A DNA stretch of 64,000 nucleotides, from positions 1 through 64,000 of the forward strand of contig JBIOIY010000005.1 of assembly GCA_044450345.1 (NCBI GenBank), in the 5' to 3' direction. Of the stretch, positions 7,468 through 58,384 are shown piece by piece. The notes beneath the pieces were generated by a model, which was given only the letters and a program-made list of their open reading frames with translations, did not search any database and was not told the DNA's origin. Both the position numbers and the translations under genes were made by a program. The first letter of the stretch is position 1. Every line of letters begins with the position of its first letter. Origin of the DNA: Thermodesulfovibrionales bacterium (GTDB taxonomy: Bacteria; Nitrospirota; Thermodesulfovibrionia; Thermodesulfovibrionales; UBA6898).

Positions 7468-7538
7468 TGCCTCTTAGAAGACCATCTGAACGTCATGTAG
7501 GCCTTTCCCGATATCCCCAACACTTTCCGCCTCGCTCC

Positions 7539-7568
7539 TTGACAAGCCTTTAAGTATTGATTTATGTT
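7539..7568 (+). promoter_or_regulatory. Putative sigma70 promoter TTGACA-N18-TATGTT
   Basis: Perfect -35 box in an AT-rich gap upstream of the hyf-like operon. Confidence 0.4.
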
Positions 7569-7735
7569 AGAGAGTTTTCATAAATTTTATATTTTCTAAA
7601 CGCTTATAGATAGATTGGACCGAAATGAAGCTTAGTGCGAAGGACGTCACCGGACTCCTCGACCTGTCTTGCGGAGAAAATATCTGTGAGGTTTTTCTCC
7701 GCAATGAGGCGGGGATAGAGTGAGGCAGCAGATTA

Positions 7736-19400: not shown

Positions 19401-19494
19401 TCTCAGGCGGCGCAGGGGCAACGGCCTTTTTGCGCACCGCTGGCGATTGTTTCTTTGCCTTGCCCTTTTTAGCTCCTGGCGTTCCCATTTTCAT
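16477..19494 (-). CDS. CheB methylesterase-CheR methyltransferase-PAS fusion
   Basis: GIGSSAGG, PIDFFF, VWVPGCSTGEEAYS, DLISCRNLLIY, ELQSANEE coiled coil and PAS domains. Start uncertain (ORF opens at 19602). Confidence 0.92.
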   Translation of the reverse strand: MKMGTPGAKKGKAKKQSPAVRKKAVAPAPPEKKAAADVREKSPAPGKDFFVVGIGSSAGGLEALEHFFLNMPPDSGMAFVLVSHLDPSHKSILPELLKRYTKMSIFETKDGMEVRPDCVYIIPPNKDMAILHGKLHLFVPVESRGLRHPIDFFFRALAQDQREKAVAVVLSGTGTEGALGIRAIKGEDGLLVVQDPKDAKYDGMPASSIATGLVDFVLPAAKIPEQLLGFISRIIKRPLRPVDGPEEQRIDPLQKIFVLIRAKTGNDFSLYKQSTILRRIEKRTVIHQIKGLTDYVSYLRHNPQEIDVLFKELLIRVTNFFRDSDAFDAVRKEALPLITRDKSFENPLRVWVPGCSTGEEAYSLAILIREYMQKANLDFKAQIFGTDIDAEAIDTARTGAYAENITVDVSPERLSRYFTRKGNVYKVKDEIREMIIFSVQNVTKDPPFSRLDLISCRNLLIYLNSALQKRVLSTFSYALNPEGVLFLGPSETIGVATDLFSVIDRKWKIFKALKTGLPLPIGLKALPAVKKILPEKITAAKLPVEPGFSDLAERLILEKYAPPCVIVNDRGDILYIHGRTGNYLEPPAGKAAQMNVLEMAREGLRLELRAALREAARKKKEMRIGGVQVKTNGSFHIIDFEVTPVKRPEALTSLFTVVFREVKVHEKEKAGRRQKRMKTQDSRRIDELEFELKATRERLQTTIEELETANEELKSANEELQSANEEFQSTNEELETSREELQSVNEELITMNAEYQGKIDELSKAYDDLRNLTASTQIATLFLDNDLAIKNFTPPIKDIVNLLESDIGRPITDFTFKVEYPELTADVKRVLDTLAMKEVPMRHQDGRWYLTRIIPYRTSGNMIAGAIVTFIDVTEHKKMQALQDALAFSEGIYETISEPLVVLDKDLSVISANRAFYSIFKTSSGEAENKPIFELDEGHWNIPELKEMLQKIFSENIPFKDFVVEADIPKIGPMKMLLNARRITHRGIGTEMVLLVVNKVDRGRS

Positions 19495-19532
19495 CTTTTT
19501 ATGCGTATCGACGGCGGCAGTTCCTCCCGTCG

Positions 19533-19931
19533 TTATCCCTCTTTCCCGTAAGGGTCCTTCCCTTCCAGTGCGGCCTTCGTGGTCTGTATCAGGTCTTCCC
19601 ATCGGATCGGTTTCGCCATATAATCAAAGACACCGAGACGTGCAGCATCTACCGCAGTCTCGACAGTGGGCGCGCCGGTGATTATGACGACGGGACAGGT
19701 TATGCCGCTTTCCCTCGCCCCACGGATGACGTCAATACCCGTTTTGCCTCCGCCCAGGATTATGTCGGCGTATATCATGTCGAACGCCGTCGTTTCTATC
19801 ATCTCTCTTGCCTCGCCGTAATTCTTAGCGGTAACGACCTCATACCCTTCTTCCGTGAGAAAACATTCGAGGGTAAATCTGATGCTCTCCTCATCGTCGA
19901 CGATGAGGATCCTATGCTTTTTCTCCACCAT
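19533..19931 (-). CDS. Single-domain response regulator
   Basis: ILIVDDE, YADIIL, ITG, KP. Confidence 0.9.
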   Translation of the reverse strand: MVEKKHRILIVDDEESIRFTLECFLTEEGYEVVTAKNYGEAREMIETTAFDMIYADIILGGGKTGIDVIRGARESGITCPVVIITGAPTVETAVDAARLGVFDYMAKPIRWEDLIQTTKAALEGKDPYGKEG

Positions 19932-28380: not shown

Positions 28381-28447
28381 AATAATTGGTAGTTTCCTGG
28401 GAGACTACCCAATAATTTGGTAGTGTCCTAGGACACTACCAATTATT
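28381..28447. repeat. Tandem pair of GGTAG...CTACC palindromes between convergent genes
   Basis: Perfect 26-bp palindrome TTGGTAGTGTCCTAGGACACTACCAA (28417-28442), preceded by a degenerate copy. Confidence 0.7.
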
Positions 28448-32982: not shown

Positions 32983-32987
32983 CCCGC

Positions 32988-33782
32988 TCAGAAAAAACTC
33001 TCGGGAACGACTATAATGTCACCGGCCATGACCGGTTCGTCCATCGCCGCCCTTTCGATGATCTTCTCTTTCCCATCGACTTTCCGAATGATCTTTATCC
33101 TCCCCTGCGATGCCTTGTCAGTAAATCCCCCGGCCATCGTTGCAGCCTTGATCACGGTAGTGCCTTCCTCGCATTTATAGGCATCGGGCTTCTTGATCTC
33201 TCCCGTGATATAAAAAACACCTGCCTTGGCGATATATACGTTATCGTTGTCCAACAAGAGAACATCCGAAGAAGTGTCCCCCTCTTCAACGAGTTTCTTG
33301 AGGTCGATGGTAATGATACTTTCCTGTTTTACGGGCGAAACGGTCTTCCTTTTTATTACGGCTTTGTCTCCGGCCTCCTTGGTGAGGCCCCCGGCCCTGG
33401 ACAGCAGTTCGAGGAACGTAGTGTTCCCGCTGAGCGCGTAAATACCCGGTTTGTTCACCTGCCCCATGATAATGGTCTTCCTGCTTCTAAACTCTTCGAC
33501 AAAAACAGATACATGGGGGTCAACGATATACCCGTCGGCGAGAAGATCGGTTATCTCTTGAGCGATCTGTGAAGTAGTCAGTCCCGACACTTTAATCGCA
33601 CTTATCAGCGGCAACTTTATGAACCCGTCGCCGCTTACCCGCGCCACAGCAGTAAGATCGGGATGATCGTATACCGTGATCTTCAGCACGTCCTCTTCCC
33701 CAACCAGGTAATCCTGGGCAAAGAGAATACCGACGTTCCAGAAGATAACGATGCCCAGCATGAGTATAAGGTATTTTCTCAT
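32988..33782 (-). CDS. Polysaccharide export protein (Wza/OPX, SLBB domains)
   Basis: YLVGEEDVLKITV, DGFIKLPLI, GQVNKPG, AGGFT. Confidence 0.9.
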   Translation of the reverse strand: MRKYLILMLGIVIFWNVGILFAQDYLVGEEDVLKITVYDHPDLTAVARVSGDGFIKLPLISAIKVSGLTTSQIAQEITDLLADGYIVDPHVSVFVEEFRSRKTIIMGQVNKPGIYALSGNTTFLELLSRAGGLTKEAGDKAVIKRKTVSPVKQESIITIDLKKLVEEGDTSSDVLLLDNDNVYIAKAGVFYITGEIKKPDAYKCEEGTTVIKAATMAGGFTDKASQGRIKIIRKVDGKEKIIERAAMDEPVMAGDIIVVPESFF

Positions 33783-33848
33783 TGTTGCTACTTATACAAA
33801 TTATAGAATAAATGGGGGAATAAATACACGAACGTGCTGTCGCAGAAG

Positions 33849-35438
33849 CTAGAGCGAGCCCGTCACCCTGAAAAAAATGGTATTACTGGAATAGTTGAAA
33901 TCAGGGAAATTGGACTCCCTTGTCGCATACGTGTAGTAAATCCCTGCCTTGAGCCATTTTCTGAAATCGTATTGGAACCCGAGAGTGGCCTGATAAAGAT
34001 TGTCTCTTCTCTTCGCGGTATTGCCGCCGAAGGTCAGATCCTCCCCGTAACTCTCCTGAGTGTACCCCAGGTCCAGAGACCCTGTGATCTTGGAGGTGAG
34101 CATCTGTTGATATCTCACCGCGAAGGCATTCGTAAGCACAAAGAAGGTGGAAGGTATGTTGGACTCGTCAATCCTCCTCGATGCAGTTAATGTCAAAGAA
34201 GTCTTCGGGGTAAATTTATGATCCACATTGCCCTCAAAGACAAAAGTCCTGCTATTTGCCACTGGATCCGAGAAGTCCCGGAGGCTATAGCCTGCCCTGA
34301 CGCTCCCCTTTGATTTAGCCGTGATTTGCCACTCCATGCCCAAGAGGAAATTATGCTCCTTGCTGTTGAGAGAGGCGTCGTTCGAATATCCTATATCCTT
34401 AAAGACATATTCAAAGAAAAGTGACGTCTTAGATCGGAGTTTGTAGAAGAGATACGTCGAAAACGAATTATCCACCCGGTCTCTCAAGGAGTTCCTTTCG
34501 GCATCATAACTCACAAGAAAGTGGGAGTAATCAAAACGGAACCGGAGCTTGTTGCCCGTGTCGTACGACAACATCGCATAAAAAAGATTGCTGTTATATT
34601 GGTCCACTTCGCCCGGGCCAACCAGCACCGACGTATCGGTCGTCTCATAATTTCTTGAGAATTCGTCGTTCACTGCTATAGAAAGACCGCCGCGGAAATT
34701 ATAGGCAAGGCCCCCCTGCACGTTTTGGGTTATCATATTCCCGGAGGGGGAGTTCTGCGAATGAATTGGGATGTCCGACTGGTAGAGCAAAAATGCCTGG
34801 TAGCGTTTCGCTGTTCCTCCCCCTTCCCTGCTCAAAGAGAGCCCCCCCCCTGAACGCGGGTCAATGAGACCCAGACCCTCAGGTTTCTCATTTACTCCCG
34901 GCATTGATATCCAGACTTCGGGGGACAGGACCGTGTATAGGTCGCTTTTTTTGTCCGTCCTGGTGTTGAATGCGTTGTCGGTGTAGATTTCCGAGACGGT
35001 CAAGTCTGCATGGAAATATCTCGCCGAACGCAACAAGATATCCGTGGCTGTCTTCTTCTTTCCGACAGGAGGTTCAGCTTCGGAAGAAAGTCCCGGCTCA
35101 CCGCTACCTTTGGGAGGCGGTTTTTGCATACCGGCCGCCGGTTCCCGGTGTATGATTACAAAGACTCCGTATACCGTCTTGCTGTCCTTTGCTTCATACT
35201 CACGGAAATACGTTTCGAAACCGTCGCTTCTGATCTTCTCAGAGAGCTTTTCCGCCTCCTCTCTTGTCGTAAACACCGATATCTCGACCTCGTTCTGGGG
35301 ATCTTTCTTGCCGGCACTTCCTTCCTGCGGTATGCCTTCTTTTTGCCCGGCGAAACAGACGGGATTTGGGAACAAAAGACTACTGATCAAAAAAGCAGTT
35401 ATACAACTAATTATGCTACCCAGCGCCCATTTTATCAT
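33849..35438 (-). CDS. Outer-membrane beta-barrel of polysaccharide export loci, with an N-terminal SPOR-like segment
   Basis: Amphipathic beta strands, YTDNAF, terminal FFRVTGSL; F.TREEAEKL..KI...GFETY resembles SPOR. Confidence 0.7.
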   Translation of the reverse strand: MIKWALGSIISCITAFLISSLLFPNPVCFAGQKEGIPQEGSAGKKDPQNEVEISVFTTREEAEKLSEKIRSDGFETYFREYEAKDSKTVYGVFVIIHREPAAGMQKPPPKGSGEPGLSSEAEPPVGKKKTATDILLRSARYFHADLTVSEIYTDNAFNTRTDKKSDLYTVLSPEVWISMPGVNEKPEGLGLIDPRSGGGLSLSREGGGTAKRYQAFLLYQSDIPIHSQNSPSGNMITQNVQGGLAYNFRGGLSIAVNDEFSRNYETTDTSVLVGPGEVDQYNSNLFYAMLSYDTGNKLRFRFDYSHFLVSYDAERNSLRDRVDNSFSTYLFYKLRSKTSLFFEYVFKDIGYSNDASLNSKEHNFLLGMEWQITAKSKGSVRAGYSLRDFSDPVANSRTFVFEGNVDHKFTPKTSLTLTASRRIDESNIPSTFFVLTNAFAVRYQQMLTSKITGSLDLGYTQESYGEDLTFGGNTAKRRDNLYQATLGFQYDFRKWLKAGIYYTYATRESNFPDFNYSSNTIFFRVTGSL

Positions 35439-38376: not shown

Positions 38377-39333
38377 TTATTTCGCACATCGGAAACCAAT
38401 ATCCCGGCTTCTTATCGCGGGATCGAGCCAATAACGGTATGAACTCCTCAGCATTTTTTCTTCGCTTTCTTCCCATGACCCCCCGCGAAGCACCTTGAAA
38501 ATTCCGATCGGCGGCCCCTTAGGGTCATATTTCGGCGGCATATCAGGCCCCTTTTTGTCTTTTGTCTCCGGCTTCTTGTCGGTCCCAATTAGTCTGGAAG
38601 CGTTCTCCAAATAATCAGCGCTGTCAGGATCACAGTAATTACAGTAATTCTGCCGGTACCAGTCATTAACCCACTCCCGGCAATTTCCGGCCATATTGAG
38701 AACGCCGTAATACGAAGCCCCTTCGGGAAGAGCATCTACCGGGACCATCGCTCTCAACCCCTGCCCTTCCCATTTTTGGTGATATCTGGCCTTAACGTCA
38801 TCCGCCGGGTCGTCACCCCAGGGGTAAAGCCTTCCCTCATTTCCCCTCGCCGCCTTCTCCCACTCTGCCTCGAACGGCAGACGTTTCCCCTTCCATCGAC
38901 AGTATTCATCTGCTCCGTACCATGAGACGTTGTTGGCGGGATAGTTCTCAAAACCCTTACGGGGGGCATACTGCGGATTTCCGCTTTTGCCGTTTCTTTC
39001 CTTTTCTTCGACTATGGTCGAGTAATCGTCGGAAGAAAAATATTTATTATCAGGGTTGCCTTTCTCGTTGAGAAACAGGGCAAAATCCCTTGCGGATACC
39101 TCATACTTGTCCATCATGAAGGCATCCAGGAAGACATCATGCTCCGGTCTTTCATTCAGTTCCGAATTATTGGCCCCCATCTTGAACCAACTCTCGCTAA
39201 TGATGACCATGTCAGTGGCTTCCTCGGAGGAAAAATCGACTCCTTTGTTCTTATTCACTGATGAACAGGAGATAAAGAGGAACACCGAAGCGAGAGAAAT
39301 AAAAAAAATGCCGGCTAATCTTCGTCTTCTCAT
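38377..39333 (-). CDS. FGE-sulfatase (SUMF1) domain lipoprotein
   Basis: Lipobox-like FISC, FKMG, ERPEH.V.LD.F.MDKYEV, RLPFEAEWEKAARG, NMAGN..EW, RGGSW, GFRC. Confidence 0.88.
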   Translation of the reverse strand: MRRRRLAGIFFISLASVFLFISCSSVNKNKGVDFSSEEATDMVIISESWFKMGANNSELNERPEHDVFLDAFMMDKYEVSARDFALFLNEKGNPDNKYFSSDDYSTIVEEKERNGKSGNPQYAPRKGFENYPANNVSWYGADEYCRWKGKRLPFEAEWEKAARGNEGRLYPWGDDPADDVKARYHQKWEGQGLRAMVPVDALPEGASYYGVLNMAGNCREWVNDWYRQNYCNYCDPDSADYLENASRLIGTDKKPETKDKKGPDMPPKYDPKGPPIGIFKVLRGGSWEESEEKMLRSSYRYWLDPAIRSRDIGFRCAK

Positions 39334-39855
39334 CGTCTGTATTATACATTTTTTCGAGGGCGCGTCAACACAAGCCCGAAAGGGATTTTTCCTGGAAAAA
39401 GCAATCCGGAAAAGGCTCCGGTCTTCCAGGCTGCGCTCACCTTGCTATAATCCTTTGCCAAAATTACCCCCTACCCAGGTAGGATTGAATATCCGTCTCA
39501 TAAATCGCAAACTATACATAAATAGCGGAGTGAATTGATTATTTTGTCGCCAGGCTTCTCAACATGGCAGTAAAATGTTATTATTATTAATCAAAAATTA
39601 TAAAAAAGAGTTGTCTGCCAACTCGGAGAGAAATATGCACAAAACAACTTCTTCAGGTATGGCCAACGTAGTGTCTCATAAAGACCCTTTTTCTAATTAT
39701 CATGCCGGCTTCTCCGGCCTGAGACTCATAGAGAATCTTGAAGAAGGATTGCATACAAGCCGAAACTACATCCGGCGTAATCATACTTGCTTTCCTTACG
39801 GTACGTATTTAGTTTCGAGTAATAACGTATGTCCCTATGTAGCGGAGGTATAGCA

Positions 39856-42800
39856 ATGTCTAAAAAGAAATTCACAAAATCGACACTCATCCTTTTTAAG
39901 CTGTTATTAGCTCTTACATTCTTATTATTTTGCGCGACATACGGCTATGCCGCCGGTCCTGCGGGCTACTCGGAATACTATATTCCGGGTGACGAAGACG
40001 ATATGGGCCTCGTCCTCTGCTCCTATGGGGCGACTGCTTGCCCCGCAGGCTACCACATGCACACCGTGATCAGCGTGACCGCCTGGTCGGACAACACGAC
40101 AATCTATTACGACCAATGGGAAAACGGCTATAACTTTGATCCGAACAACCCCGGTGCTACTGCCGATGAGACATACACGCTCAACGCTGGTCAGGTCATG
40201 GTTTTCGAGAGCGCAAACATAGCCTTACCCCGCACTGCTACCCCCCCGGCAACAACTTGCACCAACTACCGCAACGGGACACTTATCGGCACCTCTACGA
40301 CTTGCTACGACGGAAAAGACAGGATCTACGTGGCGGGAGGAACTGTAACAGTCACGCGCGTAAGCTACATTGAGGAGAGGGGTGTGGGTCTCCAGGGGGC
40401 GGCGTGGGAGATCTACCCTCTCCAGCCACAGTTGACGACCTATGCCGTCCCTTTTGGGGAAACCAACGGTTGGTACGGCTTCCAGCGAGTGAGCACACTC
40501 ATCCAGGCCACGCAAAATAATACTGTTGTTACCGTGGACCTCAACCACGACGGCACCCCGGACCCATTATATACCCAGGCTGGCGTCCTCATTGGTCCCA
40601 GCGTCACGCTGCAACAAGGACAGACCTTTCTGTTGAACGACGTGAGCGCTAACGTTGCCGCGGGGACCATGGCCGGCGGAGCGATAATCACGGGGTCCAG
40701 TACGCTTCAGGTCAAATACCTCGCCGGGCGTACGGACGTTAACAATTGCACGCGCGGGTTCAGCGCCTTTCCGCGCGGATTCTGGACAAAGGACTATTAT
40801 GCGCCGCTAAGCCAGCCCGGCGTAGATCTCACCGGGCAGGCGAGCGACACCGACTACTACCTGTATAACCCAAACTCTGCTGCCATCACGGTTAACTGGC
40901 AAGGCACCGCCACTTCGGGGTCATTCCCTATCCCTGCCACCTCCACCGTCTCTTTCCGGACGGCTTCGGGCGGCGCGGTACCGACCGGCTCGGGGCTTTA
41001 TTTCAATGGAAGCGATATCTTCTGGGGGGTCGGTTCAAACGATACCGATAACATCGGCGGCGCGAGCGGATACGCCCACGAGTGGGGATTCAGCCTGCTG
41101 CCGTCTACTATGCTCTTCACAGAGCACTATCTCGGCTGGGCCCCTGACGGCCTTCCCCTTGCTGCCGGGCAAACCGAGATGGGCGTCTTTCTCACACCCG
41201 CCCAGGACAACACGCGCGTCTTCGTGGACTTCAACAACGACGGCATTATCGATCAGACGTATACGCTGAACCGGTTGCAGACCCAGTACATCACAAATCC
41301 CAACGGCGACTTGTCGGGGGCGCACTTCTGGGCGAGCGGCCCCTTCACCATGGCCTACGGCCAGAACTCCGCCACATCGAACCTCAGTTCCCCCGCGCTG
41401 GACCTCGGCTACATCGCCATCCCCGGAAGCGACTTTGTCTCCCTTGTACTCACGGTTGCCAAGTCCGTCAGCCCACAAGTCGTGCCCACTGCGTCAGGTT
41501 CAGTTGCGACATTCACGATCAAGGTTGACTCCCAAAAATACACGGTTGATGGGGTGAACGTCACCGACTATTTGCCGCCGAACTGGAACTACGTTGTCGG
41601 CACAGACACCACAACCATAACTAGACCTGACCTGACCACGGTCACCGGCTCTTCAGCAGACCCTACGAAAACCGGCGCCGGACCTTACACCCTCACCTGG
41701 AGCAGCGCCCAGCTCGGCACGAACGGAACTCCCGGTATGGCCACAAACCAGGAGGTCACTATCACCTTCACCTCACGGACAACGGCTGTACTTGCCGTCG
41801 GAACTTTGAGCCAAAACAAGGTAAAGGCCGTCGGTACAAGGACGTTCGGCACGCCGAGTCAGACACAAACCTTCACGGCATCAGACTTCGTCTACGTTAC
41901 CTCCGGTGCAGTCACCATCACTAAAACATCGAGTGTTCCTGCTGCTACCCCTGTTTCTCCCGGCGACAGCTTCACGTACTCCGTGGTGGTTGCCAACCCG
42001 TCTGCTAGCGGAGTCACTTTGACTAACCTCTCGCTGTACGATGCTCTGCCCACCGGCGTGACCAATGTCGCTGGGACGACCACCATCAGCCGCGCATCAA
42101 CTGTCGCAGATACTTTCACGACCCAGGCATACAGCAACAACGACGGCACCCAACCCTGGGCAGGCAACTGGACCGAGACGGACATTAGCGGAACAAACCC
42201 CGGCCCCGCCGGGCCGACTACGGGGTTTGTGCAGGTCGCAGGCAATGCGCTGAGATTCGGATATCAGGCTTCAAACGTGGCCGACAACTTCAACACGGGC
42301 AGCGTCTTCACTCAGAATGACGGCAACACCAACTGGTCCGGAAACTGGACGGAAACCGGCGATAACAATAACCCCGCCACAGGAACCATCCAGTTCAATG
42401 TGGCTGCGGCCGGGAAGGTCGATTTTACGAGATGTGGTGCGGCCGGCTGCAACATCCAGAGGTCAGCTCCGTTCTCGGGAGGCAATGTCACCATAAGCTT
42501 TGTGCTTACCCAGAATGGTCTTGCAGTCAACGAGTTTCTGGAGGGTGACTACAGCCTCAATGGCGGCACAACCTGGGTCGGTATGCAGAGGATTACAACG
42601 GGCAACGCACTTTCAACACCGCCGGGCGGCTGCGGCAATCCATGCACGATCTCCACTGCTGGCGCCACTTCGCTTACAGTTCGTTTCCAGGAGACTACTC
42701 GGTGGGCCACCAACACCCACCATGCGCAGGTCGATAATGTCAACATCGCCTTTAATGATTCCATCGGATCTGCCGCTCAGCGGACCGCGAACCTTACCGG

Positions 42801-45800
42801 CGCTACCAGCGCAACGCTCAACTTCACTTACGCTTCCGCGAACCTCGCGGGGACCGATACTGTGGTAGTCCAAGCGAGCAATGCCGCAGCCGGGCCCTTC
42901 ACCACACTGGCGACGTTTACTGCGGGAACTCCTAATGTTGCGCCCCCATACAATCTGACTACTTATATCTCGGCCAACACCACTATTCGATTCCTTGTTA
43001 CGGGCGGAATCAACGCTCCGACCAAGACCTTCTCCGTCGATAACGTCACATTGGCCTATAACACATCCCTGGCAGGCGCTAATCCGCCTGAACTGGTCTC
43101 TTCCAGTTCCGCCTACAATCTTACTCCCGGCGAAACACTTACAGCATCTTTCGACGTTACAGTGGACAATCCCCTGGCAGCAGGGATCGACACCATAACC
43201 AACACCGCCTCGACAACATCAACCCAGTTCCCGATACAACTCAGCGCGAGCGTCACTAATCTTGTCGTCAACCCTTCTTCCGGGAGCGCCAGTGTGGGAA
43301 ATAGGGTCTGGCTGGACTCAGACGGCGACGGCGTACCGGAAGTGGGAGAGCCCGGTCTGGCCAATGTGGAGGTGATGCTGAAGGACCAGTTCGGCACGCC
43401 GGTTATGGTGACTACCACTGACGCCACAGGGCATTACCAGTTCACTGGCGTGAAAGCCGGAAGCGGGTATTATGTCGAGGCAACCTCAAGTACCATTCCG
43501 TCCGGGTTGACCCAATCCGCCGCAACCGGTAGTAACAACCGCACGAGTGCCTTCAATCTGACCGCGGGTCAGTCTTATACGAGTGCGAACTTGGGGTATA
43601 AACCTGTTACTGGGACTGCCACCATCGGCAATTTTGTATGGTCCGATGCAAACGCCGACAACATACGTAATCCCGGTGAGCCCGGCATAGCCGGAGTTAC
43701 CGTCAGACTTTACATAGACACTAACCGCAACGGCACCTACGAGGCCGGGACCGATACCCTTTGTACTATCGCCACTTGCGGTACAAACGGCACTACCACA
43801 ACCGCTCCGGACGGAAGCTATTTGTTTACCGGCGTGACCGCCAGCGGAACTCAGGATTACATCGTTTATATCGACGAGACAGCCCTATTGGCAGCGGGAT
43901 ATGTGCGGACGTCTCCTCCCAGCGGCGGCCCCCTGTTCTCTATCATGAATGTCAGCGCCGGGGCCTCCATCCTCTATGCGAACTTCGGCTATCAGGGGAC
44001 GACATACTCGATCGCAGAACGCGTCTGGTTTGATGTCAATGGTAGCGGCACTCCGGACGCAGGCGAATCAGGGATTGGCCTGGTGACGGTTGAACTGCTT
44101 GATGCCAGCCTCAACGCGATCGCAACTACAACGACTGACGCCAATGGGTATTTTACTTTCTCCGGAGTGAAGGGGGGCGGGGCCAACTACACAGTCAAGA
44201 TCACCGACACGAACGCTGTACTGGCCAATTATTTCGGCACAACTGTCGCAGCTACGGCCGGCAGTGAAAAAATCAATAACCTCAGCGGCAATATCGACTA
44301 TACCTCGACGCCTCATTTTGGGTTTAATCTAAGCAGGAGCATCAGCGGCACCGTGTTCAACGACAATGGGGCCGGCGGCGGTACCCTTGGCGACGGCATC
44401 AAAAACGGCAGCGAGCCTGGAATCTCCGGGGTGGTCGTAAAATTATACAACGACGCAAACGGTAATGGGCAGATCAATGCACCTAGCGATGCCGTGATCG
44501 CCACCGTAACGACCGATGCCAACGGCAACTATATTTTCTCCGGTCTGAGCAACGGCAATTACATCGTCAGTATCGAATCACCTCCTGCCGGGTACACGTA
44601 CGCCGGGACCGATAGCGATGCAGGCACCACGGGGCAGCAGAGAGCAGCAAGTATTGTCAGTAACGGCAACGCGCCGAACATAAACTTCGGGTATCATGCT
44701 TCTACGCCCCGCAGTGTATCAGGCACGCTGTGGGAAGACACCAATAAGAACGGTGTTATGGATAGCGGTGAGGCCGACATATCTGGAGTGACGATCGATT
44801 TGCTCAATGCAAGTCTCGCCGTTGTTGCCACCGCAACCACGGACGCCCACGGCTTTTACAGCTTCACCGGCATAGCAAGCGGCACTCCTTATTATGTCAA
44901 GATTACCGACAACAACGGTGTTTTGAGCGGATACACTCCAACCTACCAAATTACCGGGGGCACCGCAGGTCCTTTCACAGGGCAGGAAACCGTTAATCTG
45001 AGCAGCGGGGACAAAAACGGCGTCAATTTCGGCTACTATAATCCCATCCCCACTCTGGCTGTCATCTCTTATTTCGGTGCCTATGAAAAAGACGGCAAGG
45101 TTATAGTACAGTGGGAGACGGCCTCTGAGATAAATACACTGGGATTTAATCTTCTCAGGCTCGATCCTCTCACGGGAGAATACAAGCAAGTCAATTCGGG
45201 TCTCCTCCCCTCTATGCTCAAGCCCCACCGGGGGGGGAAATATACCTTCAAAGACACCGGGTCCCTGCCAGGAAAAACCTATACATACAAGCTAATCGAG
45301 ATTGAAGTGGATGGGAATGAGCGGTCCTATGGCCCATTCGCAGTCTTCCCCGCAAGGATAACGGATGACAAAGGTCTTGACCTCTCCACCAATGCAGATT
45401 ACGGACGGACTGAGCGTGACAAGCCTGAAATGCATAAGGTCCGCACAGACGGTAGAAAGTCCGGGCAGCCGGGCAATGTCAAGACTGGAAGCGGAGAACG
45501 AATAAAAATATCTGTTATGGACAGCGGGATTTATTACGTGGATGCGAAGGACATCTCCTCTTTACTCGGGATATCTGCGGACAAGATCCCTTCCATGATA
45601 GGTCACGGCCAGTTGTCTCTGAGTAATCAGGGCAAGCAGGTCGCCTATCTGCCTGCAGCAAATAACGCCGGCCTTTACTTTTACGGGACAGGGATAGACA
45701 GCATCTACACAAAAGAGAACGTCTACTGGCTCGACAAGGGCGCAGGGACACTCATGCCCGTGGTTGAGGGCACAGGCCCAGCGCCGTCGCCGGAGGGAGG

Positions 45801-47574
45801 CAGCTTCACCGAGACAGTGCATCTTGAGGAAGATGTGATTCCGTGGGAAACACTTTTCAACGACCCCAATGTCGATTACTGGTTCTGGAACCAGATATTT
45901 GCGAGCAATTTTTACACCGATCCCGCGAGGAGTTTCACGTTCCAGCCGCTTGGGCCGGCTCCCCAGACCACGGCCGTGATGCAGGTTCATCTTTTCGGCG
46001 GATCAGATGCGGGAGTAACGAATGACCACCATGTTGTGGTGAGTCTCAACGGTCTGTCGGTAGAGGACTGGTGGAGCGGTTTGACCCCCCATACCATTAC
46101 CGGAAGGTTTCCTTTGCAGCCGGGCGAAAACATCATTACGGTAGCGGCTGAGGCCGACGAAGGGGTTTCGTCGAGTTTTATTTTAATTGATTCATTCGAT
46201 ATTACTTATAAGCGGCTTTACGATGCTGACGGCGACAAACTCTTCTTCAGAGGAGACGGAGCCCCGTCGGTGACCATCGGAGGATTTGCGTCAGCCGGCA
46301 TCAAGGTCTTTGACCTCACGAATCCCATCATACCGAAATTAAATGCGGCCACCACGATCGAATCTTCCTCAGCATCAGGGACGGCCAGCTATACCGTCAG
46401 CCTGAAACCCGCTTCTGCAAATACCCCTTATATTGCCGTAGCTTCCGCAGGGATAAAAGCGGCGTCTGCCAAGGCGGCGTCTTTTTCCAAACTTTCTGCG
46501 AAGCAAAATTCGGCCGACTACATCGTCATCGCCCCTTCTGAATTGGTTTCCACCGCCCAGGGCCTTGCCGACTACCGGGCAGGACAGGGTATGAAGACGA
46601 TGGTGGTGAATCTGGAAGATATCATGAACGAATTCAACTATGGGATATCAAGCCCGGAGGCTATTAAGTCATTCCTGTCTGTTGCCCATTCGAAATGGAA
46701 AAAGTCACCAAGATATGTAGTCCTGGTCGGAGACGGAAGCTTGGACTATAAAGATAATCTGGGATTCGGCGGGAACCTCATTCCATCGAAGTTGGTGCCT
46801 ACCGACTTTGGTCTTGCCATGTCGGACAATTACCTTGCAGATATCAACGGAGACCATCTGCCGGAGATTGCCATTGGAAGACTGCCGGTAGCAAACCCTG
46901 CCGAGTTGCAAACCGTCATCGGCAAGATAAAGACCTATGAGCGCAACCTCGGAAACACCCGCGTGGTCCTCGTGGCTGATACTCCCGGTGATGGAGGAGA
47001 CTTTATCGCCGATAGCGAAACGCTTGCGGGCCTTTTCCCATACGGCTATGCTCTCACCAGGATCTACCTGGACGACCCGGCTATAGTCGACGCAAAAAGG
47101 GCGGCCCTCATAAGCGCCATAAACCAGGGGGCGGCTTTCTTTAATTATGTGGGGCATGCCGGGCCCGATCAACTTTCTAATTCAGGGTTGTTGTCTTATT
47201 ATCCCTATCCTGAGTACAATCCGCCTACAAACGATTTGCCTTCGCTGACAAACGCAGCCATACTGCCGGTGATGACCGCCATGACATGCGGACTGGGTAA
47301 TTTCTCCGACCCCTACGAAGACGTGCTGACGGAGGCGCTGCTGCTGAAGTCGGACGGTGGAGTTGCCGCCGCGTGGTCGCCGACAGGACTTTCTGATGAT
47401 TCGCAGGCGGGGATTCTCAACCGTGAGTTTTATAAGGCAGTCTTTTCCGCCAAAAAAGCTGTACTCGGTGACGCGGTCCTTCAGGCGCTTTCGGTTTACA
47501 AGAAGCAGGGATCGATGCCGTTTATGATGGATACCTATTGCATACTGGGTGATCCTGCCCTTAGAATAAGGTAA
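39856..47574 (+). CDS. Giant secreted protein (~2570 aa): Ig-like/DUF11 domains, five SdrD-B-like repeats, C-terminal C25 (gingipain-like) cysteine peptidase
   Basis: GGAGG then ATG 39856; signal peptide; DUF11-like VAKSVSP/ITKTSS..FTYSVVV; five G..VW.D....G.....EPG repeats; C25 motifs ADYIVI, YVVLVGDG, SDNYLAD, IAIGRLP, YVGHAG, MTCG, LGDP. Confidence 0.88.
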   Translation: MSKKKFTKSTLILFKLLLALTFLLFCATYGYAAGPAGYSEYYIPGDEDDMGLVLCSYGATACPAGYHMHTVISVTAWSDNTTIYYDQWENGYNFDPNNPGATADETYTLNAGQVMVFESANIALPRTATPPATTCTNYRNGTLIGTSTTCYDGKDRIYVAGGTVTVTRVSYIEERGVGLQGAAWEIYPLQPQLTTYAVPFGETNGWYGFQRVSTLIQATQNNTVVTVDLNHDGTPDPLYTQAGVLIGPSVTLQQGQTFLLNDVSANVAAGTMAGGAIITGSSTLQVKYLAGRTDVNNCTRGFSAFPRGFWTKDYYAPLSQPGVDLTGQASDTDYYLYNPNSAAITVNWQGTATSGSFPIPATSTVSFRTASGGAVPTGSGLYFNGSDIFWGVGSNDTDNIGGASGYAHEWGFSLLPSTMLFTEHYLGWAPDGLPLAAGQTEMGVFLTPAQDNTRVFVDFNNDGIIDQTYTLNRLQTQYITNPNGDLSGAHFWASGPFTMAYGQNSATSNLSSPALDLGYIAIPGSDFVSLVLTVAKSVSPQVVPTASGSVATFTIKVDSQKYTVDGVNVTDYLPPNWNYVVGTDTTTITRPDLTTVTGSSADPTKTGAGPYTLTWSSAQLGTNGTPGMATNQEVTITFTSRTTAVLAVGTLSQNKVKAVGTRTFGTPSQTQTFTASDFVYVTSGAVTITKTSSVPAATPVSPGDSFTYSVVVANPSASGVTLTNLSLYDALPTGVTNVAGTTTISRASTVADTFTTQAYSNNDGTQPWAGNWTETDISGTNPGPAGPTTGFVQVAGNALRFGYQASNVADNFNTGSVFTQNDGNTNWSGNWTETGDNNNPATGTIQFNVAAAGKVDFTRCGAAGCNIQRSAPFSGGNVTISFVLTQNGLAVNEFLEGDYSLNGGTTWVGMQRITTGNALSTPPGGCGNPCTISTAGATSLTVRFQETTRWATNTHHAQVDNVNIAFNDSIGSAAQRTANLTGATSATLNFTYASANLAGTDTVVVQASNAAAGPFTTLATFTAGTPNVAPPYNLTTYISANTTIRFLVTGGINAPTKTFSVDNVTLAYNTSLAGANPPELVSSSSAYNLTPGETLTASFDVTVDNPLAAGIDTITNTASTTSTQFPIQLSASVTNLVVNPSSGSASVGNRVWLDSDGDGVPEVGEPGLANVEVMLKDQFGTPVMVTTTDATGHYQFTGVKAGSGYYVEATSSTIPSGLTQSAATGSNNRTSAFNLTAGQSYTSANLGYKPVTGTATIGNFVWSDANADNIRNPGEPGIAGVTVRLYIDTNRNGTYEAGTDTLCTIATCGTNGTTTTAPDGSYLFTGVTASGTQDYIVYIDETALLAAGYVRTSPPSGGPLFSIMNVSAGASILYANFGYQGTTYSIAERVWFDVNGSGTPDAGESGIGLVTVELLDASLNAIATTTTDANGYFTFSGVKGGGANYTVKITDTNAVLANYFGTTVAATAGSEKINNLSGNIDYTSTPHFGFNLSRSISGTVFNDNGAGGGTLGDGIKNGSEPGISGVVVKLYNDANGNGQINAPSDAVIATVTTDANGNYIFSGLSNGNYIVSIESPPAGYTYAGTDSDAGTTGQQRAASIVSNGNAPNINFGYHASTPRSVSGTLWEDTNKNGVMDSGEADISGVTIDLLNASLAVVATATTDAHGFYSFTGIASGTPYYVKITDNNGVLSGYTPTYQITGGTAGPFTGQETVNLSSGDKNGVNFGYYNPIPTLAVISYFGAYEKDGKVIVQWETASEINTLGFNLLRLDPLTGEYKQVNSGLLPSMLKPHRGGKYTFKDTGSLPGKTYTYKLIEIEVDGNERSYGPFAVFPARITDDKGLDLSTNADYGRTERDKPEMHKVRTDGRKSGQPGNVKTGSGERIKISVMDSGIYYVDAKDISSLLGISADKIPSMIGHGQLSLSNQGKQVAYLPAANNAGLYFYGTGIDSIYTKENVYWLDKGAGTLMPVVEGTGPAPSPEGGSFTETVHLEEDVIPWETLFNDPNVDYWFWNQIFASNFYTDPARSFTFQPLGPAPQTTAVMQVHLFGGSDAGVTNDHHVVVSLNGLSVEDWWSGLTPHTITGRFPLQPGENIITVAAEADEGVSSSFILIDSFDITYKRLYDADGDKLFFRGDGAPSVTIGGFASAGIKVFDLTNPIIPKLNAATTIESSSASGTASYTVSLKPASANTPYIAVASAGIKAASAKAASFSKLSAKQNSADYIVIAPSELVSTAQGLADYRAGQGMKTMVVNLEDIMNEFNYGISSPEAIKSFLSVAHSKWKKSPRYVVLVGDGSLDYKDNLGFGGNLIPSKLVPTDFGLAMSDNYLADINGDHLPEIAIGRLPVANPAELQTVIGKIKTYERNLGNTRVVLVADTPGDGGDFIADSETLAGLFPYGYALTRIYLDDPAIVDAKRAALISAINQGAAFFNYVGHAGPDQLSNSGLLSYYPYPEYNPPTNDLPSLTNAAILPVMTAMTCGLGNFSDPYEDVLTEALLLKSDGGVAAAWSPTGLSDDSQAGILNREFYKAVFSAKKAVLGDAVLQALSVYKKQGSMPFMMDTYCILGDPALRIR

Positions 47575-47583
47575 AATACAAAT

Positions 47584-47901
47584 ATGTCTAGTGGTACAGC
47601 AGAGGACAATATCTGGATAAAGGTATTCGAGAGGCCGAAGAACATCGTCTCCCGCAGTATCGCAGGAGAGCTTTTTCTCGTCCCGGTTGCGGGAAAACTT
47701 GCCGATATGCAGAGGATGTTCGCTCTTACTGCGGTCGCTGAGTTCATTTGGGAGAGGCTGGACGGCCGAAGGAGCCTGGATGATATCCGCAACGATGTTC
47801 TGGAATATTTTGACGCCGAGGAAGAACAGGTCGAAGCTGATATCAAGGCTTTTGTGACCGAACTTATGGCAGAGGGCCTTCTCATTGAGGTAACTGGCTG
47901 A
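47584..47901 (+). CDS. PqqD-family RiPP recognition element
   Basis: R.IAGE.FLVP, L..VA.FIWE.LDG, I...V.EYFD......DI..FV.EL...GL. Confidence 0.9.
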   Translation: MSSGTAEDNIWIKVFERPKNIVSRSIAGELFLVPVAGKLADMQRMFALTAVAEFIWERLDGRRSLDDIRNDVLEYFDAEEEQVEADIKAFVTELMAEGLLIEVTG

Positions 47902-47903
47902 CC

Positions 47904-49025
47904 ATGCAATGTCACGATACAAAATGGCCGGACACAGGAGAATATCTGGAGGAGTTTATTGCGAAGGCCGAACAGCTTCATATCCCCCTTGCCGGAAGCC
48001 TGGAACTGACCCACCGATGCAATCTCAACTGCGTCCACTGTTATCTTGGACAGCAGGCCAAAAGGCAGGTACTTCGGGACCGCGAGATGAGCGCAGCCAG
48101 GATACACACTTTAATCGACGAGATTACGGAGGCCGGTTGTCTGAATCTGCTGATCACAGGGGGGGAGCCCCTTCTGAGGGAAGATTTTCCTGAGATTTAT
48201 CGCCATGCAAAGGGAAACGGGCTGTTGGTCACAGTCTTTACCAATGGGACGATTATCGGGGAGAAGACTATCGAGCTGTTCTGTGATCTCCCTCCTGTTG
48301 AAGTCGAGATAAGTGTATATGGCGCTACGGAGCATGTTTATGAGAGCATTACGAGCGTCCACGGATCATATAAGAAATGCCTGCTGGGCATCAGAGGTCT
48401 TTTGGAAAACGGCGTCAGGGTGAACCTTAAGACAATCCTCATGACCATAAACCGTCATGAGTTTACAGACATGGAAAATATGGCGAAGGAACTCGGCGTC
48501 AGGTTCCGTTTTGATGCTGCAATATCGCCGCGCATGGACGGTGACAATTCGCCGCTCGGCCTTCGCGTCCCGCCGGAGGAGGCCATAGAGAAAGAAATGT
48601 CCGGTGCCGGGAAGGTGGAAAGCTGGAAAACTTTTTTTGAGAAATTCAAAGACCGCACACTTGGTTCCGGCCTCTACGGCTGCGGTGCAGGCCTCACCGC
48701 CTTTCATATAGACCCTTTCGGCCACATTCTTCCCTGTATGATGGCCCTTGATATGAGATACGACATCTCGGAGGCAGGATTTAAGGAAGGATGGGACAAT
48801 ATTATGCACCGCATAAGGGATAAAAAGACTGCAGCCGACTTCGCCTGCAGGGGATGTGTTAAGATAAATCTCTGCGGTTACTGTCCGGGGTTTTTCAGAC
48901 TGGAAAATGGTCTTGAAGACGTCCCTTCTGAATACATCTGCCGGATGGGCGGCCTTCGTTATGAATATATTCACGATCATGCAATGAAAGGAGATCATGG
49001 TGGACAACCAGAAAAAGTCAGTTGA
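47904..49025 (+). CDS. Radical SAM/SPASM peptide maturase
   Basis: CNLNCVHC, TGGEPLLR, TNG; SPASM-type CGAG..IDPFG.ILPC..CRGC....LCGYCPG..C. Confidence 0.92.
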   Translation: MQCHDTKWPDTGEYLEEFIAKAEQLHIPLAGSLELTHRCNLNCVHCYLGQQAKRQVLRDREMSAARIHTLIDEITEAGCLNLLITGGEPLLREDFPEIYRHAKGNGLLVTVFTNGTIIGEKTIELFCDLPPVEVEISVYGATEHVYESITSVHGSYKKCLLGIRGLLENGVRVNLKTILMTINRHEFTDMENMAKELGVRFRFDAAISPRMDGDNSPLGLRVPPEEAIEKEMSGAGKVESWKTFFEKFKDRTLGSGLYGCGAGLTAFHIDPFGHILPCMMALDMRYDISEAGFKEGWDNIMHRIRDKKTAADFACRGCVKINLCGYCPGFFRLENGLEDVPSEYICRMGGLRYEYIHDHAMKGDHGGQPEKVS

Positions 49026-49176
49026 CAGGCTGCCGTATGCGAAACCAAGGTTGAGAATCATCACCCTTGTCGCTGAGGAAGTCCTCGCGATATCATGCAA
49101 GCAGGCCACTGGGGCGCCTGCAAAGAATGGACATGGGTGCGGATTTCCCAGTTGCCGTGCCGCAGGAGGCTCATAA
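48997..49176 (+). CDS. Putative RiPP precursor peptide, 59 aa (MVDNQKKSVDRLPYAKPRLRIITLVAEEVLAISCKQATGAPAKNGHGCGFPSCRAAGGS)
   Basis: Missing from the ORF track. AAGGAG at 48988-48993; YAKPRL leader motif; Cys/Gly-rich core; fills the gap between the rSAM and kinase-like genes. Confidence 0.85.
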   Translation: MVDNQKKSVDRLPYAKPRLRIITLVAEEVLAISCKQATGAPAKNGHGCGFPSCRAAGGS

Positions 49177-49209
49177 TCATGAGATGGATATGAGCCGTTA
49201 CGGAACTGG

Positions 49210-50133
49210 TTGTTTTTGAATATCGTTATCGCTGATATTCATTTCCGCATACGCTCCGGAGATATGCCCCTTCTGAATGACCCCTCGCGAAGAACCTATG
49301 GGCCGTTCATCGCAGACAGAGTCTCTTCCGGCGAAGGGGCCGCAAGCATTGATATCACCATTGAGGCAAGAGACTTCCCCAACACCGGGCAATTAATAAA
49401 GATATTTGAAACTCCGGATTCCTGGTCTATGTTCAGGGACGGAGACCAGTATTTCTGGATGGATATCTCTGCATCGTTGGGAGGGAAGCCGGATTATGTT
49501 GCCAGTTTCCATCGGCGGCCTGAAAAGGTGACGGTCTATTGCGGGGAATCTTTTGTAACGGAAAGAGACGGCAAAAAAATGCTCATGAACCCCATCGCCT
49601 ATCCCCTGGACCAACTCTTACTTATGTATGCACTGGCGGAAAGGGAAGGTGCCTGCATGCATGCAGCCGCCCTTGATTTGGACGGTAAGGGATATCTCTT
49701 TCCCGGCAGATCGGGCGCCGGCAAGAGCACGATTGCGCGAAGCTTCACAGCCAGAAACCGTGCCTTATTGAGTGACGACAGGGTGGTCGTCAGGAAGATA
49801 GGCGACAAATTCAGGTGCTTTGGGACACCATGGGCCGGCGATGCCGGGATTGCCGAAAACAGGAGTCTGCCTCTCAACGGAATCTTTTTCATCCATCATG
49901 GGAATGAAAACAGGATTGAAACAATAACACCGAGAGAGGCATTTGAGAGACTCATGCCTGTGACTTCCATCCCCTGGTACGATGATAAAGTCATGCCTGC
50001 CGTACTCTCTTTCTGTGAAGATCTGGCCCTGCATGTGCCCGCCTATGTCCTGCACTTCACGCCGGACCGCAGGGCCGCGGACTTGATTGAAGGGTTCGTT
50101 TCGGATAAGGAAATACATGGCGCTATTCCGTAA
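49210..50133 (+). CDS. HPr-kinase-like P-loop protein (ScmC/lasso-kinase-like)
   Basis: MHAAAL, GRSGAGKST, LLSDD, GTPW.G. Confidence 0.8.
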   Translation: MFLNIVIADIHFRIRSGDMPLLNDPSRRTYGPFIADRVSSGEGAASIDITIEARDFPNTGQLIKIFETPDSWSMFRDGDQYFWMDISASLGGKPDYVASFHRRPEKVTVYCGESFVTERDGKKMLMNPIAYPLDQLLLMYALAEREGACMHAAALDLDGKGYLFPGRSGAGKSTIARSFTARNRALLSDDRVVVRKIGDKFRCFGTPWAGDAGIAENRSLPLNGIFFIHHGNENRIETITPREAFERLMPVTSIPWYDDKVMPAVLSFCEDLALHVPAYVLHFTPDRRAADLIEGFVSDKEIHGAIP

Positions 50134-50148
50134 AGGATTACCTTAGGC

Positions 50149-50592
50149 ATGTTAGACATCGGCAGGGAAAATTTCCATGATATAGCGAAAGAGGTACTGG
50201 GAAGCGGCAAAGGTCTTGTCTTTGTGGCAGGCGGGAGCAGCATGTCGCCCTTCATTAAGCATGGGGATACCGTAGAGATACGACCTGACAGATCGTTACG
50301 GTTGGGCGATGTCGCTTTCTTAAGGAATCAGGAAGGCCGACTCGTATTGCACAGGGTCATAAAGATGACGGGGGCCGGCATAATTACGAGGGGCGACGCG
50401 GTCGAAGGGGATGACGACTTCACCCCGTTCGGAGATGTGCTCGGCAAGGCGGTCAAGTCTTCAGGATATAATTTTCATCTGAAATTCCCGTTCAACCGGC
50501 TCATAGCCCGGGGGTTCATCCGCCCTTCGAAACTCTCGCGAAACAGATTGTTATTCCCTCTCGCCAAAAAGATTGCCTCCCTCCTCGGTTGA
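50149..50592 (+). CDS. Soluble S24/S26-family serine peptidase
   Basis: GSSMSPFIKHGD, GDVAF, VLHRV, TRGD; no TM segment. Confidence 0.8.
   Translation: MLDIGRENFHDIAKEVLGSGKGLVFVAGGSSMSPFIKHGDTVEIRPDRSLRLGDVAFLRNQEGRLVLHRVIKMTGAGIITRGDAVEGDDDFTPFGDVLGKAVKSSGYNFHLKFPFNRLIARGFIRPSKLSRNRLLFPLAKKIASLLG

Positions 50593-58307: not shown

Positions 58308-58384
<77 letters not shown>

Follow-up and report, generated by a model that had tools for sequence, protein, structure and literature searches.

The 64,000-nucleotide stretch analysed here (the window), which belongs to contig C5 of a Thermodesulfovibrionales genome (3.19 Mb in 86 contigs, 91% complete), contains six genes on the + strand that probably encode a pathway for a peptide made on ribosomes and modified after translation (RiPP), headed by a giant secreted protein. 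The first gene (39856..47574, with an alternative first ATG at 39829) encodes a predicted protein with SdrD_B and C25 domains, recognised by Pfam and NCBIfam. It is followed by genes for a 105-aa PqqD-family RiPP recognition element (RRE; 47584..47901, PF05402), a 373-aa radical S-adenosylmethionine (SAM) peptide maturase of the SPASM type (47904..49025, PF04055), a putative 59-aa precursor peptide (48997..49176), which is supported by homologues and a Shine-Dalgarno (SD) sequence, a 307-aa HPr-kinase-like P-loop kinase of ScmC/LppK-like character with a TTG start (49210..50133, PF07475), and a 147-aa soluble homologue of the archaeal or endoplasmic reticulum (ER) type of signal peptidase (S26B, SipW/LppS-like; 50149..50592, PF00717 and TIGR02228).

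The original prediction for this locus was made from the sequence and a list of open reading frames (ORFs) alone, and we followed it up by ORF listing, Pfam and NCBIfam scans and database comparisons. Its six same-strand genes, with successive spacings of 9, 2, -29, 33 and 15 nt, were exactly reproduced by the ORF listing, and the domain identities it gave for the operon proteins were each confirmed by the scans. Dozens of unrelated genomes share this gene set, which puts the arrangement far outside what chance would give. The genome has one match each for PF01364 (C25), PqqD and the HprK-like family, and all three lie within this locus; by the radical SAM and C25 proteins its closest relatives are metagenome-assembled genomes of Nitrospirota.

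A large family of precursor peptides

The 59-aa ORF overlaps the radical SAM gene by 29 nt, its ATG at 48997 is preceded by the SD sequence AAAGGAG, and it has no family match in Pfam or NCBIfam. Its predicted leader carries the motif PYAKPRL, a form of YxxPxL, and an EEVLA box, and the predicted core contains C34, C48, C53 and a C-terminal Gly-Ser. For comparison we used 77 loci from species-representative genomes, retrieved by a profile of 24 relatives of the radical SAM protein: 38 close loci (L009-L046), each with one radical SAM gene, and 39 distant ones (L047-L085), the components being called by phmmer searches in which the window proteins were the queries and every ORF of the 77 loci a target. 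Of the 38 close loci, 36 have a homologous small ORF between the radical SAM gene and the kinase gene. According to an alignment of 37 precursors, Y14, P17 and C34 are invariant and C48 and C53 at least 90% conserved, and the consensus reads K-x-P-Y-x-K-P-x-h-x-x-h-x-L-x-x-E-E-x-x-L-x-x-C-K ... C ... C ... G-S, with residues between the cysteines that vary both in sequence and in length.

The last residue of these 37 close precursors is Ser in 31, Thr in two and Gly, His or Pro in four (L028, L039, L041 and L045). The first small-ORF filter demanded a terminal Ser; the phmmer matches obtained free of it and the later matches of a hidden Markov model (HMM) are independent of this filter, and all 16 filter-free phmmer matches end in Ser. 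The HMM of the alignment added 25 precursors from loci with several radical SAM genes, up to four per locus and with W replacing Y, of which 24 end in Ser and one in Thr, the C-terminus lying mostly outside the matched part. Against 1.84 billion representative proteins the precursor profile found 2389 clusters at E<=0.001 and 139 at 1e-10. Among the best 150 matches 147 are short (51-89 aa), and these best short matches end in Ser (141) or Thr (6), with Gly-Ser as the final pair in 124, and contain three (139) or four (8) cysteines. This pattern of conservation rules out a spurious ORF, and the predicted precursor family is real and very large, its hallmarks being the leader motif, three cysteines and a terminal Ser.

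Three much longer proteins among the top profile matches (P0121, P0122 and P0151, 854-1823 aa) are built of tandem repeats, 10-11 or more in number, that contain a PYKSPEIEGISL-like motif, and they have 0-6 cysteines. Their likeness to the RRE-binding leader motif is probably a matter of chance, and we do not count them as relatives of the precursor.

The predicted maturation enzymes

The PqqD-family protein matches PF05402 at 3e-16 (59.9 bits), and its best NCBIfam matches include PqqD itself, at 38.5 bits for a cut-off of 46. When both partners were given as alignments, an ESMFold2 model of the RRE with the precursor reached an ipSAE of 0.54, the best control having 0.01; at least 96% of contacts are shared between runs, and the partner pLDDT is no lower than 53. 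The mark applied to such models was reached by 116 of 157 solved complexes and by two of 215 mismatches, and passes at or below 0.60 comprise only 18 of the 157 solved complexes together with both passing mismatches. Because RRE-leader complexes have already been solved, the pass may reflect memory or likeness, and the model lends weak support to binding of the precursor by the RRE.

The radical SAM protein matches PF04055 at 1.8e-22 and has its CxxxCxxC cluster at C39/C43/C46 and seven C-terminal cysteines (C260-x12-G-x4-C278, C315-x2-C-x5-C-x2-C327 and C346) in near-canonical SPASM spacing, and both the cluster and the C-terminal cysteines are invariant in an alignment of 24 sequences. Its nearest solved chains are SkfB (6.4e-14), PqqE and CteB. 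More than 120 database relatives at 52% identity or above carry generic names only, and the JGI name for such proteins is 'radical SAM protein with 4Fe4S-binding SPASM domain'. By its cysteines the putative maturase shows the SPASM/twitch auxiliary clusters by which sacti- and ranthipeptide enzymes are recognised. With these maturases (SkfB, CteB, AlbA, PapB) it has in common a radical SAM domain followed by a C-terminal multi-Cys auxiliary-cluster domain, and a Cys-bearing peptide with a leader; they usually have an N-terminal RRE fused to the enzyme, whereas the RRE of the window locus is a separate protein, and the separate PqqD gene fits the absence of an N-terminal RRE domain in the radical SAM protein.

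The kinase-like protein passes the Hpr_kinase_C model PF07475 narrowly (3e-08, 33.8 bits for a cut-off of 33.3), and its P-loop GRSGAGKST and an SDDR motif align to HprK 2qmh. Among 30 homologues H151, G166, S168, G171, K172 and T174 are at least 90% conserved, and in the nearest Atlas clusters PF27840 ScmC is found in 16-49% of members. The last protein of the operon matches Peptidase_S24 (PF00717) at 1.9e-05 and the model of the archaeal-type signal peptidase I, TIGR02228, at 4.5e-09; it has no match at E<=0.1 among PDB sequences. Conservation among 26 homologues is 90% or higher for G29, S31, M32, P34, H68, R69 and D83, and the GxSMxP, HR and GD boxes that they form correspond to the Ser/His pattern of ER/archaeal-type (S26B) signal peptidases. 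As judged by eye, the protein has no N-terminal membrane helix. We presume it to be the leader peptidase.

Distribution of the cassette

The gene order in the close loci is PqqD, radical SAM, small ORF, HprK-like kinase and then, where present, the S24-like gene. A PqqD homologue was called in 36 of the 38, the kinase in 34 and the S24-like protein in 27. Three of the four close loci without an HprK-like match end at a contig edge; L041, the one full-flank close locus without a kinase, has the precursor that ends in Pro. The cassette is carried by at least 12 phyla, namely Nitrospirota, Planctomycetota, Thermodesulfobacteriota, Myxococcota, Omnitrophota and Cloacimonadota, and further Verrucomicrobiota, Acidobacteriota/Aminicenantes, Actinomycetota, Chloroflexota, Elusimicrobiota and Fermentibacterota, and its hosts are mostly uncultured bacteria of soil and sediment. 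The distant loci (for instance L075 7865-9847, L055 and L085) have two to four radical SAM/SPASM genes, often an HprK-radical SAM fusion, precursors with a WxKPEL leader and, in 13 of 39, a match to an MsbA-like ABC transporter.

A nucleotidyltransferase of the NTP_transf_5 family (PF14907) is common in relatives that have no C25 gene (L014, L015, L016, L019, L031, L033, L038 and L043), and in Omnitrophota it is fused to the S24-like peptidase (L015 12174-13781 on the + strand, L014 3889-5970 and L031 3821-6067). The sole NTP_transf_5 gene of the window's own genome is on another contig (L090, G000:C24:3000-18000, at 7011-8084 on the - strand), where it is part of a cluster for glycan biosynthesis that also has Glycos_transf_4 and GT2 genes, two of GT1, two epimerases and a phosphomannomutase; possibly it is a trans-encoded counterpart of LppN, the partner enzyme of a pathway described below, or of the lasso-peptide nucleotidyltransferase. 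Two other loci have a B12-binding radical SAM gene adjoining the cassette (L033 6863-9727, fused to TPR repeats, and L035 1594-3153), which may be a further tailoring enzyme.

Association with a giant C25 protein

The giant protein has 2572 aa if it starts at ATG 39856 and 2581 aa from ATG 39829. We prefer the former start because a GGAGG sequence (39844-39848) precedes it by 7 nt and because translation from it gives a protein with a typical signal peptide at the N-terminus. After the signal peptide come about 1150 aa that match no family, then a DUF11 repeat and five SdrD_B domains, and at the C-terminus a C25 domain; the N-terminal 700 aa have no Pfam match, and their Atlas likeness of 0.81-0.84 to DUF11 and IgGFc_binding clusters provides leads only. 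The match to Peptidase_C25 (PF01364) is strong (1.3e-73, 248.9 bits for a cut-off of 23), the domain also matches PDB 6za2 and 1cvr, and the predicted catalytic His2443 and Cys2487 (numbered from 39829) align with the dyad of RgpB 1cvr; all 17 C25 domains linked to a cassette have both residues unchanged. From these matches the C-terminal domain can be assigned to peptidase family C25.

The last 690 or so residues match positions 4-732 of the 1095 in the PorU model NF033707. PorU, the sortase of the type IX secretion system (T9SS), and the gingipains share with the protein the C25 fold with its catalytic His and Cys in place, but no T9SS C-terminal domain follows the C25 domain here and the host is related to Nitrospirota and not to Bacteroidota. 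With 204.8 bits for a cut-off of 420, membership in the PorU/T9SS sortase family is rejected. The T9SS markers PF18962 (Por_Secre_tail) and PF14349 (SprA_N) had no match in the 91%-complete genome, and as the control genomes gave none either, this absence carries no weight.

A C25 gene adjoins the cassette in 15 of 38 close loci, representing seven phyla and two gene orders, and in one of the 39 distant loci. In Nitrospirota, Planctomycetota, Thermodesulfobacteriota, Verrucomicrobiota, Actinomycetota and Acidobacteriota it stands upstream of PqqD, and in Anaerolineae downstream of the kinase. A radical SAM tree (quick and of modest support) and a C25 tree both split a window-type group from an Anaerolineae group. 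In a sample of 401 genomes of the window's phylum, 16 have a close orthologue of the HprK-like kinase (E<=1e-57), and in 13 of these a strong PF01364 match is located 1.6-1.9 kb away on the same contig. In two others (G272 and G312) the C25 and HprK-like genes are both at contig ends, which is compatible with an assembly break, and in one (G386) no C25 was found beside the orthologue. The cassette is thus genetically coupled to an active-looking secreted PorU/gingipain-like protease, and the co-occurrence of C25 genes with homologous cassettes, which had been proposed as a check of the locus, is upheld by both samples.

It had also been claimed that the locus lacks an ABC exporter. The Pfam scan found no ABC transporter among the flanking ORFs of the window locus, and the claim extends to all C25-linked loci, where an exporter match occurs in none of 16, compared with 17 of the 77 loci overall. 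In the closest relative (L009 2765-11121, 76% identity of the radical SAM protein) the C25 and radical SAM genes are split into several overlapping ORFs; since no part is missing or out of sequence, the splitting looks more like the result of frameshift errors in a long-read assembly than like decay.

Relation to known systems

The closest characterised system is the linear polyphosphorylated peptide (LPP) pathway, LppA/B/K/S/D/N (Popov et al. 2026, PMC13381572), followed by the phosphorylated lasso peptides. LPP clusters are described as containing an RRE, an HprK-like kinase, a leader peptidase similar to signal peptidase I (SpI-like, SipW-like), a nucleoside triphosphate (NTP) transferase and an exporter resembling MsbA, as embedded in capsule loci and as restricted to Bacillota (PMC13381572). 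The kinase is reported there to polyphosphorylate core Ser3, and the SpI-like LppS to cut off the leader with help of the RRE (PMC13381572). A discrete RRE and an HprK-like kinase are common to both systems; the candidate archaeal-type SpI-like peptidase of the window locus keeps the Ser/His/Asp boxes and scores 36.4 bits for a cut-off of 51.85. The LPP transferase LppN has its counterpart in the NTP_transf_5 proteins of many cassette relatives and none in the window locus, which also has no counterpart of the exporter LppD. Of the LPP leader YxxPxVLxHQxIxFETxxS the window precursor shares YxxPxL only. As far as the LPP paper describes them, LPPs have no radical SAM enzyme, conserved cysteines or C25 partner: its main text has no mention of radical SAM, SPASM or C25, and in its supplementary file 3 'Radical_SAM' and 'Peptidase_C25' appear once each, as column heads of a domain matrix (PMC13381572).

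In paeninodin-type lasso clusters HprK homologues are described as phosphorylating the C-terminal Ser of the precursor, and a nucleotidyltransferase, sometimes fused to the B2 peptidase, as adding sugars to that phosphate (PMC8498205); for the Bsf lasso cluster YxxPxL is reported as a conserved leader motif and the RRE as needed by kinase and peptidase (PMC10368454). Phosphorylated and phosphoglycosylated lasso systems (paeninodin, pseudomycoidin, Bsf) share with the window cassette the YxxPxL leader, the discrete B1/PqqD RRE and the HprK homologue, and the Omnitrophota S24-NTP_transf_5 fusions mirror the lasso B2-nucleotidyltransferase fusions. Pfam found neither the lasso cyclase (asparagine-synthetase-like C) nor the B2 cysteine protease in the six genes and the ORFs flanking them; their place is filled by a radical SAM/SPASM enzyme and by three conserved cysteines, and lasso systems in turn have no radical SAM or C25 protein. 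The window cassette can therefore be regarded as the LPP/lasso tailoring module with an added radical SAM enzyme and a Cys-bearing core, and without exporter and NTP transferase.

The third relative is SynChlorMet, which shares PqqD-like, HprK-like (ScmC-type) and radical SAM/SPASM proteins with the window, and whose models are among the best NCBIfam matches of three window proteins. The SynChlorMet models, suggested earlier as an HMM check, did match, but far below their cut-offs (ScmD TIGR04248 39.8/100, ScmC TIGR04249 38.5/125, and ScmE/ScmF, TIGR04250/04251, 82.3/400 and 75/400 bits), so that membership is ruled out; SynChlorMet also has two radical SAM genes (ScmE and ScmF) where the window locus has one. 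The tested close loci and multi-radical SAM relatives, L068 and L075 included, stay below these cut-offs as well. The SynChlorMet cassette is not known to have been described with a precursor in the TIGRFAM text. Membership in the GeoRSP, mycofactocin, pyrroloquinoline quinone (PQQ) and lasso-PqqD families is likewise ruled out by NCBIfam matches far below the cut-offs.

Proposed pathway and alternatives

We infer that the six genes form one operon for a RiPP pathway, and from homology and conservation, on which all four steps rest, we consider it rather probable that binding of the YxxPxL leader falls to the RRE, modification of the three cysteines to the radical SAM enzyme, phosphorylation of a Ser to the kinase and removal of the leader to the S26B-like peptidase. 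The discrete PqqD-type RRE would bind the 59-aa precursor via the PYxKPxL motif, a step to which the complex model adds little, and present it to the radical SAM/SPASM enzyme, which would act on C34, C48 and C53. By family resemblance the products are most likely thioether cross-links of the sacti or ranthi type. The C-terminal Ser, nearly invariant here and the target in paeninodin-type lasso peptides, would be the best candidate for the phosphorylated residue, and the soluble peptidase may cut the leader between the EEVLA box and C34, in the manner of LppS. The C25 protein, exported by its own signal peptide, would then work on the product, or together with it, outside the cytoplasm, either processing it further or attaching it in the manner of a sortase, or it may itself be the target of the peptide; here the connection is a genetic one.

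A hybrid of this kind, in which a lasso-type YxxPxL leader, an RRE and an HprK-like kinase are combined with a radical SAM enzyme standing for the cyclase and an S24/S26 peptidase standing for B2, was the core of the original prediction. The comparative data support this reading: cassette and homologous precursor are conserved across phyla, and experiments on lasso and LPP systems have established both HprK-like kinases that depend on an RRE and a leader peptidase of the SpI-like kind.

Several observations weigh against the scheme. The radical SAM protein has no match to the Pfam SPASM model at E<=0.01 and reaches no NCBIfam cut-off, the best being MftC (TIGR03962, 109.4 for 265 bits) and AhbD, and because these best matches are generic, thioether formation is merely the commonest precedent. 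The terminal Ser is absent from six of the 37 close precursors, and three of the four that end in Gly, His or Pro come from kinase-bearing loci. The LPP kinase targets a Ser near the start of the core and not the C-terminus, so that the site in the window peptide may be another than the C-terminal Ser. The S24-like protein stays under the TIGR02228 cut-off, which is passed by its orthologues in L010 (62.5 bits) and L016 (57.6 bits), and no S24-like gene was found in 11 of 38 close loci, including the full-flank L011, L021, L028 and L043. No C25 gene was found adjoining 23 of the 38 close loci, many of which have an NTP_transf_5 gene instead. The cassette enzymes have no signal peptides and the locus no exporter, and the scheme gives no account of the way in which a peptide made in the cytoplasm comes together with a protease outside it. 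Finally, the RNA-library contigs described below cannot show co-transcription of the six genes.

A rival reading is that the five-gene peptide cassette is real and the C25 gene a mere neighbour, co-regulated or co-transferred with envelope genes and without a part in the making, processing or use of the peptide. In addition to the loci without C25, a strong C25 match occurs in 34 genomes of the phylum sample and lies within 10 kb of an HprK-like match in 15; in the other 19 the C25 gene is away from the HprK-like match, and these unlinked proteins are mostly shorter (750-1000 aa) and of one family. The cassette enzymes are cytoplasmic while the C25 protein has a signal peptide, and large surface proteins are frequent in the kind of polysaccharide or envelope locus in which the cassette often lies. 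Mere neighbourhood is difficult to reconcile with the 9-nt same-strand gap to PqqD, where the consensus scan found no terminator-like site, with adjacency in seven phyla, in two gene orders and in 13 of the 16 close-orthologue genomes, and with the congruence of C25 and radical SAM trees for what is the sole C25 gene of a 3.19-Mb genome. We hold this alternative to be unlikely, although it has to be reckoned with.

The same standing, improbable but worth keeping in mind, may be given to the possibility that the kinase acts, like LppK, on a residue inside the peptide close to where leader and core join, and that the C-terminal Ser is kept for recognition by the radical SAM enzyme or the peptidase, or for a similar reason. 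Core Ser3 is the site in the only characterised SpI-containing pathway, so far as that report describes it (PMC13381572), and S33 of the window peptide adjoins C34. The alignment of 37 precursors, however, has no conserved Ser at the junction, the residue before C34 being mostly Gly, whereas a C-terminal Ser or Thr is present in all 147 of the best short family members, and the C-terminal Ser is the residue reported for the lasso HprK homologues (PMC8498205).

Somewhat more doubtful, in our opinion, is a role of the C25 protein as a second, extracellular maturation protease, comparable with NisP in the case of nisin, which would trim the exported, modified peptide, for example after the conserved Lys that follows C34; the S26B-like enzyme would then act before it or serve another purpose. 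Clan CD proteases such as gingipains cleave on the C-terminal side of a defined P1 residue, C34-K35 is Cys-Lys in most precursors, the linked domains all keep the catalytic His and Cys, and three full-flank C25-linked loci (L011, L026 and L028) have no S24 match. Against such a role, Lys35 is equally conserved in precursors of loci without C25 and is replaced by W, H, N or F in the C25-linked L013, L027, L028, L039 and L045, none of the 16 C25-linked loci has an exporter, and an adhesin-like protein of 2572 aa would be unusual as a leader peptidase.

We may even speculate that the PorU-like C25 domain is a sortase-type transpeptidase, here outside Bacteroidota, for which the cross-linked, C-terminally phosphorylated peptide would serve as substrate or acceptor and would not be a diffusible antibiotic. 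The C25 protein would in that event couple the peptide, or the giant adhesin itself, to a cell-surface glycan or exopolysaccharide. We would not expect this to be the correct explanation; if true, it would make the peptide the first RiPP to serve as a covalently attached component of cell envelope or biofilm matrix.

It is very improbable that the peptide serves, by the logic of PQQ or mycofactocin, as the source of a small peptide-derived cofactor or metabolite and not of a peptide product: the best NCBIfam match of the radical SAM protein is the mycofactocin maturase and those of the RRE include PqqD, the set of RRE, radical SAM/SPASM enzyme and peptidase parallels MftB/MftC/MftE, and no exporter is present, but those matches are far below the cut-offs (109 for 265 and 38.5 for 46 bits), the core between the cysteines varies freely in sequence and length, unlike PqqA or MftA, and the kinase/SpI/RRE module belongs to peptide products such as LPPs and lasso peptides.

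Novelty and significance

The locus had been put forward as a new RiPP system. This can be maintained for the radical SAM form, the precursor family and the C25 partnership, none of which we found described in the literature, while the kinase/RRE/SpI module has already been published as LPP. Searches of the literature combining PqqD or radical SAM with HPr kinase gave only papers on lasso peptides or remarks; no paper was found that uses the name 'SynChlorMet', and for radical SAM together with C25 and RiPP nothing was relevant by title or abstract. No curated NCBIfam model names any part of the cassette, although the precursor family counts 2389 clusters and the cassette at least 12 phyla. 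The analysis extends to a radical SAM-containing form a module of RRE, kinase and SpI-like peptidase that was published for Bacillota only, supplies a precursor for SynChlorMet-like cassettes, and ties a RiPP pathway to a giant C25 protease, for which we found no precedent in the literature. Working out the partnership of the C25 protein with the RiPP could reveal both new peptide chemistry and a function of C25 proteins outside type IX secretion.

Surroundings and expression of the locus

A polysaccharide-export block occupies positions 28443-35438 of the - strand, 4-11 kb upstream of the operon. It consists of a Wzy_C+TPR gene (28443-30860), a Wzz/GNVR/P-loop tyrosine-kinase-like gene (30781-32982), a Poly_export/SLBB gene (32988-33782) and a gene for a BBP2_2 beta-barrel porin (33849-35438). 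Homologues of these export genes are situated within 10 kb of the cassette in 15 of the 77 loci, which suggests a possible role in the cell envelope, the matrix or a biofilm. Directly upstream of the C25 gene, and divergent from it, is a gene of the FGE-sulfatase (formylglycine-generating-enzyme-like) family (38377-39333, - strand), beside which a near-consensus sigma-70-like site is seen at 39368-39341. Downstream of the operon there are genes for a cupin, a sigma factor and a ParA-like protein.

A consensus scan gave promoter-like matches at 39547-39587 on the + strand, and its first + strand terminator-like sites past the operon are at 51500 and 51634; these are consensus matches and carry no evidence of function. 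Contigs of two RNA libraries (X19 and X20) match the radical SAM gene (two contigs of 151 nt without differences), the C25 gene (377 nt with 15 differences) and the junction of the kinase and peptidase genes (49980-50408 with 11 differences). Most of the stretch has no cover in the two libraries, which says nothing either way. As carry-over of DNA is possible, we take these contigs as a weak hint of expression.

Elsewhere in the window, a 1041-aa CheB-CheR fusion with PAS domains is encoded at 16477-19602 on the - strand, and a tRNA gene at 58311-58384, also on the - strand, is the sole Rfam match.

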